Shown: positions 16,023-20,976 of the stretch, one piece after another | How the letters are laid out: each line of letters opens with the position of its first letter | Position numbering within the stretch: position 1 is the first letter of the stretch | Translations under genes and position numbers: made by a program | Virus record (IMG/VR): IMGVR_UViG_2718217884_000003 | Coordinates: 1-41,128 of that record | From: a virus | Lineage: Duplodnaviria > Heunggongvirae > Uroviricota > Caudoviricetes | Strand: one strand, 5' to 3' | Length of the DNA: 41,128 nt | The notes under the pieces: model-generated | Database searches by the model: none | Seen by the model: only the letters and a program-made list of their open reading frames with translations | Told to the model about the DNA's origin: nothing

Positions 16023-16097
16023 GGGTCAGTCGTATAAAGGTCATTACGGAAGGCTGTTAACCTTCTTATCGTGGTTCGAGTCCACGCTGTCCCGCCA
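16023..16097 (+). tRNA. tRNA-Asn (anticodon GTT), phage-encoded
   Basis: Hand-folded cloverleaf: 7-bp acceptor (one T-T mismatch), 3-bp D-stem, anticodon loop CTGTTAA, T-loop TTCGAGT, encoded CCA end. Confidence 0.55.
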
Positions 16098-16102
16098 AAC
16101 AT

Positions 16103-16178
16103 GCTGGTTTAGCTCCAATGGTAGAGCAGTCGCCTTGTAAGCGAATGGGTAGCGGTTCAAGTCCGTTAACCAGCACCA
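16103..16178 (+). tRNA. tRNA-Thr (anticodon TGT), phage-encoded
   Basis: Hand-folded cloverleaf: perfect 7-bp acceptor, D-arm GCTC/GAGC, anticodon loop CTTGTAA, T-loop TTCAAGT, encoded CCA end. Confidence 0.65.
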
Positions 16179-16420: not shown

Positions 16421-16744
16421 ATGAAGATGCCAGAAAAACATGACCTGTTAGCCGCCATTCTCGCGGCAAAGGAACAAGGCATCGGGGCAATCCTTGCGTT
16501 TGCAATGGCGTACCTTCGCGGCAGATATAATGGCGGTGCGTTTACAAAAACAGTAATCGACGCAACGATGTGCGCCATTATCGCCTGGTTCATTCGTGAC
16601 CTTCTCGACTTCGCCGGACTAAGTAGCAATCTCGCTTATATAACGAGCGTGTTCATCGGCTACATCGGTACTGACTCGATTGGTTCGCTTATCAAACGCT
16701 TCGCTGCTAAAAAAGCCGGAGTAGAAGATGGTGGAAATCAATAA
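16421..16744 (+). CDS. S: Holin S (class I, dual-start holin/antiholin)
   Basis: [34 protein letters not shown]... near-identical to lambda S107/S105 as recalled; upstream leader matches lambda. Confidence 0.95.
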
Positions 16745-17204
16745 TCAACGTAAGGCGTTCCTCGATATGCTGGCGTGGTCAGAGGGAACTGATAACGGAC
16801 GGCAGAAAACCAGAAATCATGGTTATGACGTCATTGTAGGCGGAGAGCTATTCACTGATTACTCAGATCACCCTCGCAAACTTGTCACGCTAAACCCCAA
16901 ACTCAAATCAACAGCAGCCGGACGTTACCAGCTTCTTTCCCGTTGGTGGGACGCCTACCGTAAGCAGCTTGGCCTGAAAGACTTCTCTCCTAAAAGCCAG
17001 GATGCTGTTGCATTGCAGCAGATTAAGGAGCGTGGCGCTTTGCCGATGATTGATCGCGGTGATATTCGTCAGGCTATCGACCGTTGCAGCAATATCTGGG
17101 CTTCACTGCCGGGCGCTGGTTATGGTCAGTTCGAGCATAAGGCTGACAGCCTGATTGCAAAATTCAAAGAAGCAGGCGGAACGGTCAGAGAGATTGATGT
17201 ATGA
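16728..17204 (+). CDS. R: Endolysin R (lytic transglycosylase)
   Basis: 158-aa protein near-identical to lambda R as recalled. Confidence 0.95.
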
Positions 17205-17668
17205 GTAGAGTAACCGCGATTATCTCCGCTCTGGTTATCTGCATCATCGTCTGCCTGTCATGGGCTGTTAATCATTATCGTGATAACGCCATCGCCTATA
17301 AAGAACAGCGTGATAAAAAAGTCAGTGAGCTGAAGCAGGCGACCGCCACCATCGCTGACATGCAGCAGCGTCAGCGTGATGTTGCTGCGCTCGATGCAAA
17401 GTACTCGAGAGAATTAGCCAATGCGAAAGCTGAAAATGATGCTCTTCGGCGCAAGCTTGATAATGGTGGCAGGGTGCTCGTCAAAGGAAAATGCCCTGTG
17501 CCATCCTCAGCCGAAACCTCCAGCGCCTCCGGCATGGGCAATGATGCCACCGTCGAACTCTCTCCAGTTGCTGGACGAAACGTTCTCGGTATCCGGGACG
17601 GAATTATCCGCGACCAAACAGCATTGAGAACGCTTCAGGAATACATCAGGACGCAATGCCTTCGATGA
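17201..17668 (+). CDS. Rz: Spanin inner-membrane subunit Rz
   Basis: N-terminal TM helix, coiled-coil body, lambda Rz-like; directly follows R. Confidence 0.85.
17421..17627 (+). CDS. Rz1: Spanin outer-membrane lipoprotein Rz1 (embedded in Rz, +1 frame)
   Basis: Lipobox MVAGC followed by a Pro-rich segment; true start may be the ATG at 17436 or 17439. Confidence 0.7.
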
Positions 17669-17919
17669 TAGCGATAATTTTACTCATCATCCTTCACATC
17701 TGGCTCTGTAGACAGGGTGGTGCTCACTTCTGGAGTGAATCCAGATTAAACATCTCATTGCTGATGCTTGAAGTTGAGCATCTGGCGCGCGGTAAGGGGC
17801 TGCGTTGAGATAAGTGCCTGTTCATTACAAAGCTATATCTAATGGAACCTGAAATAATTTGTCATTGTCATGACAAGAAAATTCATTAATGATGAGCTCT
17901 CATTATACGGGAGGTAGAT

Positions 17920-18168
17920 ATGGCATTTCGTTATTTTGAACTTACCGAAAATATTCCTTTTGAGGATGAAAGAGAGCTTCACATACAGTTCAAACACCAC
18001 TTAGAACATGTTGTAAAGGCGTTATTTATGCCGGGAACACATGAAAAGCATTTAATTGTTGAAGGCCGGGATGACGAATCGATAACACAGATATTTGGTG
18101 GGCATGATGAAAAGTTTATGCATCTTTATCACATCGATGAATATGTAAAACGTGAAGACTTAATCTAA
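17920..18168 (+). CDS. Hypothetical acidic His-rich protein
   Basis: 82-aa ORF with strong RBS GGAGGT; AT-rich island; followed by a weak hairpin. Confidence 0.55.
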   Translation: MAFRYFELTENIPFEDERELHIQFKHHLEHVVKALFMPGTHEKHLIVEGRDDESITQIFGGHDEKFMHLYHIDEYVKREDLI

Positions 18169-18558
18169 CCTCCTGCGGCTGTTTTTATTGCCATCACAAA
18201 AGCCATTCCTTGCAGAATGGCTTTGATAATGGCTTATACCCTACACGGGATAACTTAACTGATATCCCCACAAGCGGATAAAGAGGCTCTCAATGTCCGA
18301 CATCTACATCATCAAACTGAATACGAATGACGGCGGCGAGTAAACGGGCAAGATGTCACGACGTCAGCCTGAGCTGGTTAATGGCTTTGTGCCGCTGGCG
18401 ACCTAGACGGGAGGGGGGCGTACTTCGCTCCTGCTGATGTCAAGTACGTGTAGTTCACGCCAATATCGGTAGGTGACGATAGAACTGTGGAATAGACATG
18501 GCATTATCCTGGACGTGTAAATGTTCAATCGGAAATGCCATGCTGGTCAGTTGGTTGC

Positions 18559-18777
18559 TTAGACCTTCTTATAAGAGATAGATCTTCCGAATGGTGGATA
18601 TATAGAAGTTGAATCTTTAATTTCATAAGTGGCCACTACATTTCCCGCAGCGTCCAACTCACGGTAAAGGTATTCATCGGTATCCTGACCTTTTCGAGCT
18701 CCTTTCCAGTTAGAAGAGACAAGCTCAAGTGTATGGTCATCTGGAATGCCGATTTTCTGTTTGTATTCATCACTCAT
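18559..18777 (-). CDS. Hypothetical small protein, opposite strand to late genes
   Basis: 72-aa ORF with RBS AAGGA; divergent from the terminase small-subunit gene 22 bp away. Confidence 0.55.
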   Translation of the reverse strand: MSDEYKQKIGIPDDHTLELVSSNWKGARKGQDTDEYLYRELDAAGNVVATYEIKDSTSIYPPFGRSISYKKV

Positions 18778-18799
18778 GTGAAATCCTTAAAGGTAATTT

Positions 18800-19351
18800 A
18801 TGGCACTCACCGACAAGCAAGAAATGTTCTGTCGCGAGTACCTCATCGATTTAAACGCCACGCAAGCGGCTATTCGGGCGGGGTACAGCGCAAAGACAGC
18901 TAACCGTACCGCATCCGAAAACCTGTCAAAACCTGACATCAAGTTAAGAATCGCCGAACTGAAAGCGCAACGCAATGATCTTGTTGGTATTAATGCAGAA
19001 TATGTACTTAATCGCCTTATTGAAATCGACCAGATGGATGTGCTTGACATTCTCCTGCAAAACGGTGAGCTAAAACCCATCAAAGACTGGCCTAAGGTAT
19101 GGCGCACAACGCTATCAGGAATGGATGTCGTGGAGATGGTATCCGCAGATAGCGCCGCACTTCTGAAGAAAATCAAATGGCCTGATAAGGTTAAAAACCT
19201 TGAGTTGCTTGGGCGTCATGTTTCTGTTCAGGCGTTTAAAGACAACGTCAAAAATGAAGTGACTGGCGCTGATGGAGGACCAGTCAGAACAGAAATTACC
19301 AACTTAACGCCGGAGCAGGCTGCAGAGGCGTATAGAAAAATGATGGGCTAA
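18800..19351 (+). CDS. Terminase small subunit
   Basis: N-terminal motif [32 protein letters not shown] typical of the Terminase_2 small-subunit family. Confidence 0.8.
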
Positions 19352-19353
19352 GT

Positions 19354-20976
19354 ATGCCGTTACCATTCCCCTTCGATTTTAAACATCCTGATTACCAGAT
19401 GGTTTTTGAATGGCGGATGGAACGCCTACAGCGCATTCGCCAGAACCCTGAAATATTGCCAGCACTAAAACAGTTTTACCGAACCAACCCGGCTCAGTTC
19501 ATCATCGACTGGGGCATGACAACGGATCCGCGTAATATTGATTATGGCCTGCCGGTGACCATTCCGTTTTTACTCTTCCCTAAGCAGGAGGAGTGGATCC
19601 ACTGGATTATGGAACGCTGGGGCAATAGGGAGAATGGTATTACCGAAAAATCCCGTGAAATGGGGCTCAGTTGGACCGCGATCGGACTGGCCTGCTCGCT
19701 TTGTCTCTTCAACAAAGAAATGGTTATCGGTTTCGGCTCCCGTAAAGAGGAATACGTCGACAGCACTGGTGACCCGAAAGCATTGTTCTGGAAGGCGCGC
19801 AAGTTCGTGGAAACACTACCTGTAGAGTTTCGCGGTTCGTGGAGCGAGAAGAAGCACGCGCCATATATGCGTGTTGAGTTTCCTGATACTGGTGCCGTTA
19901 TCAAAGGCGAGGCTGGCGATAATATTGGTCGTGGTGACCGTACCACGCTTTATCTGGTTGATGAGGCTGCATTCCTTCAGCGTCCTCTGCTGATTGATGC
20001 GGCGTTGTCACAAACGACGCGTTGCCGTATTGACCTGAGTTCAGTTAATGGCATGGCGAACCCGTTCGCGCAGAAGCGTCACGGCGGGAAGATACCGGTA
20101 TTCACATTCCACTGGCGGGATGATCCTCGCAAGGATGAAGAGTGGTATCGCAGGGAATGCGAGAAAATCGATAATCCGGTGGTGGTGGCACAGGAACTTG
20201 ATCTGAACTACAGCGCATCTGCGGAAGGCGTCCTGATCCCGTCCGACTGGGTACAGGCTGCCGTCGACGCGCATATCAAACTTGGTATTCAGCCAACGGG
20301 CAAGCGACTGGGCGCGATGGACGTCGCCGACGAAGGCCGGGACAAAAACGCCTTTTCGACCCGTCACGGCTTCCTCCTGGAGAACGTGCGGGAATGGTCC
20401 GGCGTGGGCAGCGACATTTACCAGTCCGTTGAGAAGGTCTTCGGCTTTTGCGAACAGGACAACCTCGAAGAATTTCGCTTCGACGAGGACGGCCTGGGCG
20501 CTGGCGTTCGCGGCGATGCACGCGCCATCAACGAACTGCGTAACGCTGCGCGCCGACCGTCAATACTCGCCACACCGTTTCGCGGTAGCGGCGCGGTGTT
20601 TGATCCGGACGACGAAGCGGTGCGCGGCGACAACGGACAGGCCGCCCGCCTGAACAAGGACTTCTTTGCTAACGCCAAGGCCCAGAGCTGGTGGCAATTA
20701 CGCAAGCTTTTCCAGAACACCTATCGCGCCGTGGTTGAGGGAATGGCCTACAACCCGGACGAAATTATCTCAATCAGCAGCGCCATGGCGAGCAAAGACA
20801 AACTCATCATCGAGCTGTCGCAACCGACCTATTCCATTAACGGTGTGGGGAAAATCGTTGTTGATAAACAGCCTGACGGCACCAAGTCGCCGAACCTCGC
20901 CGACTCGGTGATGATCAGCTACGCGCCAATGAATTCAGCCCTGAACATCTGGGAGCTGCTAGGGAGACAGGCCTGA
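19354..20976 (+). CDS. Terminase large subunit
   Basis: 540-aa ORF with ATPase-like N-terminal region and nuclease-like C-terminal acidic motifs; stop overlaps portal start. Confidence 0.85.

Follow-up and report, generated by a model that had tools for sequence, protein, structure and literature searches.

What occupies the stretch between the lysis genes and the terminase genes of this prophage, and how did its parts come together? The window, by which we mean the whole stretch of DNA that was analysed (41,128 nucleotides (nt); IMG/VR record IMGVR_UViG_2718217884_000003, positions 1 to 41,128), is a lambdoid prophage of E. coli. An initial annotation had singled out positions 17,669 to 18,799 as an accessory island carrying an 82-amino-acid (aa) open reading frame (ORF82) and, on the minus strand, a 72-aa one (ORF72). 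Our analysis makes it likely that 17656-18799, taken as a whole, is a variable moron slot of lambdoid phages, extending from the spanin gene to the head genes. As a kind of region it is an ordinary, textbook moron slot and changes nothing conceptually; the leads are the family link of ORF72, a covarying RNA hairpin element and an ultraconserved start of the small terminase gene, terS. The features of the slot are as follows (RBS, ribosome-binding site).

17656..17808, plus strand: 50-aa ORF that overlaps the stop codon of Rz and has a hydrophobic N-terminus (phrog_11822, E 1.7e-36)
17823..17846, plus strand: left edge of the ORF82 cassette, CATTACAAAGC...TAATGGA, a degraded boundary copy of hairpin A, placed by comparison with Ayreon and epsilon34
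17865..17893, plus strand: putative sigma-70 promoter of ORF82, with -35 TTGTCA (17865-70), a 17-nt spacer and -10 AATGAT (17888-93)
17920..18168, plus strand: ORF82, late-strand moron gene for an acidic, His-rich 82-aa protein of phrog_35226, modelled with a ferredoxin-like beta-alpha-beta fold
18175..18189, plus strand: GCGGCTGTTTTTATT, the 3' arm and T-run left over from an intrinsic terminator whose 5' arm was replaced by the cassette
18190..18283, plus strand: two-hairpin RNA element closing the moron slot (hairpin A, 18190-18233, 5+10 bp; hairpin B, GGGATA..TATCCC)
18293..18472, plus strand: phrog_6581 pseudogene (protein of about 72 aa), located by tblastn, with RBS AAGAGG (18281-86) and ATG (18293) retained
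18559..18777, minus strand: ORF72, a 72-aa antisense moron divergent from terS, predicted to form one helix and a four-stranded antiparallel sheet (cystatin/NTF2-like roll)
18784..18793, both strands: near-palindrome TCCTTAAAGG inside the 22-bp gap, in which the Shine-Dalgarno sequences of the two divergent genes overlap (TAAGGA serves ORF72, minus strand; AAAGG serves terS, plus strand)
18800..18889, plus strand: first 90 nt of terS, ultraconserved DNA outside the interval of the initial annotation

The description as an accessory island agreed with the distribution of the region, which is mosaic and was found in its whole arrangement in only 2 of 5426 complete E. coli genomes. E. coli QML220601 carries the same arrangement at 99.3% identity, and its 50-, 82- and 72-aa ORFs are hypothetical proteins in RefSeq. 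Megablast over 1.25 kb broke the region into three modules, each present in a different set of phages. The module at 17600-17841, comprising the end of Rz and the 50-aa ORF, is common to P22-like and HK97-like phages. The module at 17633-18268 occurs as a single piece in some E. coli prophages having P22-type head genes, and the module from 18166 or 18225 to 18850 moves together with the terS type of the window. Other phages fill the slot between Rz and terminase with Rha, KilA-N, GIY-YIG or Sf6 gp66.

Base composition and comparison with insertion-free relatives both mark the region as a moron. GC content was 0.35-0.38 over 17800-18100 and 0.40-0.43 over ORF72, below that of the flanking phage genes (0.47-0.55 in the lysis genes and >0.5 in terL). 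The AT-rich tract previously noted after Rz is thus present; a conserved 50-aa ORF in the stretch just past Rz had been overlooked. Ayreon, mEp460 and HK544 run from the 50-aa ORF into a terminator and hairpin without interruption, and the insertion point was fixed by comparison with insertion-free Ayreon and epsilon34. Relative to Ayreon, 23 nt (taccaggatttagcctcgcattc) are swapped in the window for 343 nt (17832-18174) bearing ORF82. The lost nucleotides are the 5' arm and loop of the intrinsic terminator annotated in Ayreon, and similarity to the insertion-free phages stops past CATTACAAA.

At the left junction the hairpin is degraded in the window, whereas other ORF82 loci still have it intact; the intact copy of the window (18190-18233) lies at the other side of the cassette. 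Such repeats of a boundary sequence on both sides of the ORF82 cassette are the expected footprint of cassette exchange by recombination, and the junctions of the slot show how cassettes get exchanged. Comparison among phages shows the slot to be assembled from independently exchangeable cassettes with short conserved borders at CATTACAAA, at the hairpin-A ...GATAATGG element and at the 5' end of terS. The cassette at 17832-18174 brought in ORF82 and displaced the 23 nt that include the terminator 5' arm. The right-hand block, approximately 18225-18850, moves with the terS type and contains a dead phrog_6581 gene as well as ORF72.

Judged from their substitution patterns, ORF82 and ORF72 are real genes under purifying selection. 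ORF82 lies at 17920-18168 on the plus strand behind a GGAGGT RBS (17910-15), and its protein is acidic and His-rich (by count from the sequence, 9 His residues and a net charge near -9), all as first described. It matched phrog_35226, a family without assigned function, over residues 1-82 of 82 (E 1e-55). Its dN/dS was 0.08-0.14 against three homologues, with His21, His71, Glu15, Glu19, Asp51 and Glu74 among the invariant residues. ORF72 occupies 18559-18777 on the minus strand and starts 22 bp from the terS ATG at 18800, again as described; its pN was 0.05 and its pS 0.80. Both ORFs are thus conserved.

A search of 5.8 billion proteins returned only 33 clusters of ORF82 homologues, nearly all from Enterobacterales. 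In eight independent contexts the gene occupied the slot between lysis genes and terminase on the late strand, with six combinations of holin, spanin and terminase families that include lambda Nu1/GpA. By tblastn against 50,697 phage records ORF82 had no match, despite its existing PHROG family. Neither ORF82 nor ORF72 matched a Pfam family or a PADLOC-DB defence profile at E<=1, or NCBIfam. A PDB sequence search with the ORFs gave noise only, a Foldseek search of ORF72 against BFVD gave no match at E<=0.001, and a literature search on the protein accessions and PHROG ids found nothing. More speculatively, the small acidic ferredoxin-like model suggests that ORF82 may be an inhibitor that binds protein or nucleic acid. 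The 161-aa and 88-aa neighbours of ORF82 in loci L024 and L025 were considered as a source of the noncoding stretch of the window, and showed no similarity to it.

The patchy, narrow distribution of these genes (33 ORF82 clusters, and the exact combination in 2 genomes) and the decay of the adjoining phrog_6581 gene would also suit expressed but neutral passengers, that is, selfish cassettes benefiting neither phage nor host. This is unlikely. Purifying selection is strong across divergences that saturate synonymous sites, the geometry of the ORF82 promoter is conserved, and ORF72 is repeatedly found fused to other domains or sharing an operon with DUF2188 or a zinc ribbon.

How would ORF82 be expressed? 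A perfect 12-bp palindrome, TTGTCATGACAA, had been reported ahead of it. The palindrome exists, at 17865-17876 rather than 17866-17877, and the direct TTGTCA repeat lies just before it at 17859-17864 as stated. A promoter scan recognised TTGTCA-17-AATGAT at this place, with a score of 9/12, as the sole promoter-like site found on the plus strand. We aligned the upstream regions of nine ORF82 loci whose proteins are 65-99% identical. TTG.C of the -35, AAAT.C in the spacer and A2, A5 and T6 of the -10 were invariant, and the two hexamers were 17 nt apart, without gaps, in all nine. The second half of the palindrome varied, reading TGACAA in the window versus TGCTAC, TGTTAC, TGTTAC and CCACCT in other loci. 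RNA folding of the ORF82 leader and palindrome gave no structure signal (z -0.3).

A perfect dyad exactly over a -35 hexamer, with a TTGTCA half-site adjoining, could be an operator at which a dimeric regulator, either ORF82 itself or a host factor, represses the overlapped promoter. The dyad was, however, not conserved: it was missing from the homologous position in 8/8 other ORF82 loci (which read, for example, TTGCCATGCTAC, TTGTCATGTTAC, TTGCCGTGTTAC and TTGCCACCACCT) while the -35 and -10 persisted. Moreover, perfect 12-bp palindromes are rarer in the window than expected (4 observed versus 10.1 ± 2.9 in shuffles), and the ferredoxin-like ORF82 model has no helix-turn-helix DNA-binding element. 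An operator is thus very improbable. Since the -35 is kept while the second half varies, the palindrome is best read from the aligned sequences as the -35 hexamer plus a lineage-specific complement that arose by accident. ORF82 would then be transcribed in two ways, by Q-antiterminated read-through of the late operon and from its own weak sigma-70 promoter.

Downstream of ORF82, the segment 18175-18283 matched 111 phage records at about 90% identity, from P22-like, HK97-like, Stx (Sepvirinae) and N15-like phages. Its position was always past the last accessory gene and ahead of the head genes. At its start, after the 50-aa ORF, Ayreon and epsilon34 carry AGCCTCGC-attc-GCGGGGCTTTTTATT, which is annotated as a terminator; in Ayreon the annotated terminator overlaps the element. 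No hairpin formed at 18175-18189 of the window upon folding. Fold z-scores reached -5.3 for a 56-nt segment on the plus strand, where hairpin A is very stable, and -5.7 for an 85-nt segment on the minus strand.

A consensus structure from the alignment of 11 phages consisted of hairpin A, with 5+10 bp, and hairpin B, GGGATA..TATCCC followed by TTTT. In the inner stem of hairpin A, compensatory changes were seen in 4/10 pairs and 99.6% of alignment cells were paired. Only 0-1/500 shuffles reached the observed values, and pairing dropped to about 45% in slid controls. Several hairpin pairs are G.U on the plus strand and would be A.C on the minus strand; they fit the plus strand only, which points to an RNA structure in the late-strand transcript. 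Hairpin B with UUUU was present in 10/11 of the aligned phages, while the window has CACAAG in place of TTTTAA. A U-run never directly follows hairpin A. A terminator scan of 17400-19000 found no canonical terminator, and an Rfam scan of 17500-19000 gave only spurious eukaryotic matches. For 18169-18558 the best of these was mir-458, a spurious hairpin match at 24 bits where the gathering score is 59.

P22-like late operons have been noted to contain intra-operon terminators of unknown role (PMC8022706). The two-hairpin element would act on the late-strand transcript, probably as a terminator or processing signal, and would keep moron transcripts out of the head genes when RNA polymerase is not Q-modified. 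This conserved, covarying hairpin, which recurs in more than 100 records of lambdoid phages (Stx phages among them) and is absent from Rfam, may control read-through from accessory to head genes.

The element lies within a 390-bp stretch between the two ORFs (18169-18558) that the initial annotation had described as free of ORFs over 60 aa and as a possible site of a small RNA (sRNA) or of packaging. No ORF there exceeds 41 aa, in line with that description. Overall, the ORFs, the RBS and the gaps were borne out; the palindrome position, and the emphasis on the palindrome and on a stretch without features, were not. Instead, it holds the shared late-strand hairpin element and a pseudogene of phrog_6581. 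By tblastn, the pseudogene matched the last 72 residues of Enterobacter phage CobraSix gp73 with 86% identity over 43 aa, and the intact CobraSix protein belongs to phrog_6581 (E 1e-35). The frame of the pseudogene is broken, in order, by a TAA at 18341, a TAG, a frameshift and a second TAG. Three other E. coli prophages share the first two of these stops, suggesting that inactivation probably predates the spread of the terS-linked module. Apparently uninterrupted copies of phrog_6581 lie in the equivalent position in several IMG/VR loci.

A trans-acting sRNA or a packaging (pac/cos) site in this stretch could account for a very stable, widely conserved and covarying hairpin at 18190-18233 just upstream of the terminase genes. 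We consider it quite doubtful, and less probable than neutral passengers. The hairpin element precedes unrelated terminase types (P22-like, HK97-like, Stx and N15-like) and so is not terminase-specific. No real Rfam match was obtained, and the scan found no promoter-like site in 18169-18558. The remainder of the stretch is a recognisable dead protein gene, and the stretch is not conserved in phiES15, which has ORF72 and terS in common with the window. Constraint at the nucleotide level was found instead in terS, at 18800-18889.

Across 11 loci, terS 18800-18889 showed 95-98% pairwise DNA identity. Third-codon identity was 0.91 in the first 60 nt of terS, compared with 0.40-0.56 further into the gene and with 0.50 in ORF72. 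Silent sites of ORF72 and of the remainder of terS were saturated in these loci. RNA folding of the terS start gave no fold signal (z -0.9 and -1.2). TerS residues 3-76 are homologous to the DNA-binding domain of SF6 G1P (3zqp, E 2e-11), and in SPP1 the small terminase gene shares its RBS and the 5' part of its coding sequence with the pac site (PMC6316719). By this analogy, 18800-18889 is most plausibly a candidate pac site or a recombination joint. It is a better packaging-site candidate than the 390-bp stretch, and is testable as such for this terminase type. An ORF72 promoter was rejected as the cause of the conservation, since the block is equally conserved where ORF72 lies elsewhere. An 88-nt noncoding relic of the terS 5' end, 91% identical to 18800-18887, was found upstream of an ORF82 homologue in an E. 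hormaechei prophage that uses a different terminase (L019 2140-2226 and L020 814-900). The relic resembles a scar left where modules were exchanged at this sequence.

ORF72 lies on the strand opposite to all recognisable late genes, as judged from IMG/VR loci, 27/29 of which had identifiable flanking late genes. About 18 of the IMG/VR loci have ORF72 beginning 22 bp away from terS (TerS identity, 66-99%). The gap was constant within 1 nt in about 18 viral loci, and ACCT.TAAGGA, with the overlapping Shine-Dalgarno sequences, was kept in 11. This constant divergent junction, together with the ultraconserved terS segment beside it, would be expected if ORF72 were tied to DNA packaging, through terS expression or pac recognition, rather than being a conflict or lysogenic-conversion gene. 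Four observations make such a tie improbable. In loci L007 and L008 the homologue adjoins Rz, distant from terS. Homologues occur in chromosomal restriction-modification (R-M) cassettes of 23 species without a terminase. Conservation of the terS 5' end persists without ORF72, and other small antisense genes (DUF2158/YodC, DUF6953 and a 78-aa ORF) fill the same position in related phages. The L007 homologue has a promoter-like site of its own, TTGAAA-17-TACATT, as well as a perfect TATAAT and a canonical terminator, suggesting that ORF72 can be a self-contained antisense moron. In the window, transcription of ORF72 as an antisense moron would begin at a promoter in or close to the start of terS and run opposite to the late operon. 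Its expression would fall outside late growth, typically in the lysogen, like that of lambda bor.

To what kind of family does ORF72 belong? Outside phages, a search of one genome per species (185,579 species) found 28 loci. In 23/28 species loci the ORF72 homologue, 56-67% identical, sits in one conserved Type I R-M cassette (L029, L031-L050, L054 and L055, with the match at 4001-4210 in most). The cassette also recurs in L006, L015 and L017. It opens with a half-size HsdS-like gene, followed by DUF2188 and the ORF72 homologue; past a hairpin come HsdM, a Bro-N protein and HsdS, and three metagenome loci that were studied closely have HsdR beyond these. Only a few nucleotides separate the stop of DUF2188 from the start of the ORF72 homologue, and dN/dS in the R-M-cassette branch of the family was 0.03-0.10. 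Across Vibrio, Pseudoalteromonas, Marinomonas, Acinetobacter, Pseudomonas, Colwellia and other genera, HsdM was 91-100% identical to the reference copies. Such high identity across gammaproteobacterial genera suggests a recently spreading mobile unit. In L006 the cassette adjoins glmU and glmS, and in L015 an insertion of SLATT and SMODS genes separates hsdS from hsdR.

Other relatives of ORF72 keep similar company. In L051 the neighbours of the homologue are HNH, zinc-ribbon, Abi_C and HsdM genes. The ORF72 domain is the C-terminal fusion partner of PIN_8 nucleases in three representatives, is fused to the zinc ribbon also seen in L051 in two, and is fused to a weak HEPN/DUF4145 match in L052. 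A 64-aa zinc-ribbon protein is encoded directly upstream of the homologue in L051 (3790-4219). Fusion of this zinc ribbon and the ORF72 domain in other organisms (about 125 aa; P0097 and P0110) suggests that the two act jointly. A link between DUF2188 and defence has been described (Burroughs and Aravind 2020, cited in bioRxiv 10.1101/2022.04.27.489752); a literature search on PF18476/PIN_8 returned only papers on plant PIN8.

Guilt by association suggests, more speculatively, that ORF72 acts in phage-host conflict, perhaps by binding a nuclease or restriction component or modulating one. The genomic company of its family (Type I R-M, PIN, HEPN, Abi_C and DUF2188) makes it a candidate immunity modulator or anti-restriction factor. 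A joint reading can be offered tentatively, with a good deal less assurance than the moron slot itself. Under it, ORF72 would represent an undescribed family of conflict domains of about 70 aa with a cystatin/NTF2-like fold, linked to DUF2188 upstream of hsdM and C-terminal on PIN_8 or HEPN-like nucleases. Temperate phages would have captured a stand-alone copy, an antisense moron with which they modulate or block restriction or nuclease-based immunity, and the covarying element at 18190-18283 would be a widespread but unrecognised cis-acting RNA in the late operons of lambdoid phages.

Several points weigh against these interpretations. The R-M association may be hitch-hiking; a terminator-like hairpin separates the ORF72 homologue from hsdM. 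Neither ORF82 nor ORF72 matches PADLOC, Pfam or NCBIfam, and their fold matches are generic. All promoter and terminator calls are consensus matches: the ORF82 promoter scores only 9/12, promoter-like sites in the 1.6-kb scan were no commoner than in shuffles, and the scan found no sigma-70-like site on the minus strand upstream of ORF72 in the window. Termination at the two-hairpin element of the window is doubtful, given that hairpin A lacks a U-run and that hairpin B has lost its own there.

The slot is bordered by genes of familiar lambdoid type.

Upstream of the tRNA pair and lysis genes: Q antiterminator
16023-16178: tRNA-Asn(GTT) and tRNA-Thr(TGT), between Q and holin
16421-16744: lambda-type holin
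16728-17204: R lysozyme
17201-17668: Rz/Rz1 (PF03245)
18800-19351, plus strand: terS, Terminase_2 small subunit (PF03592, E 7e-40)
19354-20976: large terminase subunit, 540 aa, no Pfam match
Downstream of the large terminase subunit: portal (Phage_portal_3)

Sf6 has the identical tRNA-Asn/tRNA-Thr pair in the equivalent place. The Pfam search of the 540-aa large subunit was made at E<=0.01; some copies are labelled TerL in RefSeq, and the protein may belong to a divergent terminase family. The 50-aa ORF beside Rz is kept in many phages. Its homologues include Sf6 gene 65 and epsilon34 gp67, and it is annotated as a coding sequence in Sf6, epsilon34, Ayreon and RefSeq E. coli. It had no match in PADLOC-DB at E<=1, and may encode a small membrane protein that accompanies the lysis cassette.

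The moron concept reportedly comes from work on HK97 and HK022 by Hendrix and Juhala, and lambda bor is an example of a moron in this position, antisense to the late operon. Like other lambdoid morons, the genes of the window are extra genes between blocks that are adjacent in relatives, with GC below that of the flanks, and ORF82 has a promoter-like site and a downstream hairpin. Unlike in those morons, the downstream hairpins of the window are not canonical intrinsic terminators. ORF72 shares with lambda bor its orientation antisense to the late operon and its slot between Rz and the head genes. The earlier remark that neither protein resembles Bor was supported: neither ORF has a Pfam family at E<=1, and neither contains a cysteine, so that no lipobox is possible.

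Among accessory genes of R-M and defence islands, the relatives of ORF72 fit well, forming a two-gene unit with DUF2188 upstream of hsdM, lying beside Abi_C, HNH and SMODS/SLATT genes and fusing to PIN_8. ORF72 itself differs in being solitary in a prophage, without a partner gene or a PADLOC family. The SPP1/SF6 pac region, which also overlaps the promoter of the small terminase gene, resembles the window in its G1P-family TerS and in DNA constraint over the codons of the DNA-binding domain, matching the position of the SPP1 pac site; it differs in that the conserved block of the window could be a recombination joint, given the L019 relic, and in that the TerL of the window has no Pfam match.

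The P22-like phages Sf6, HK620 and epsilon34 differ from the window in the variable gene, which is ORF82 here and not Sf6 gp66, GIY-YIG or Rha, and in the head module, which has an SF6/SPP1-type TerS and Phage_portal_3 rather than P22-type genes. They share with it the end of Rz, the 50-aa ORF and the closing hairpin at 95-97% DNA identity, and the same slot logic, with the order Rz, gene 65, variable gene and DUF2560 gene in those phages.

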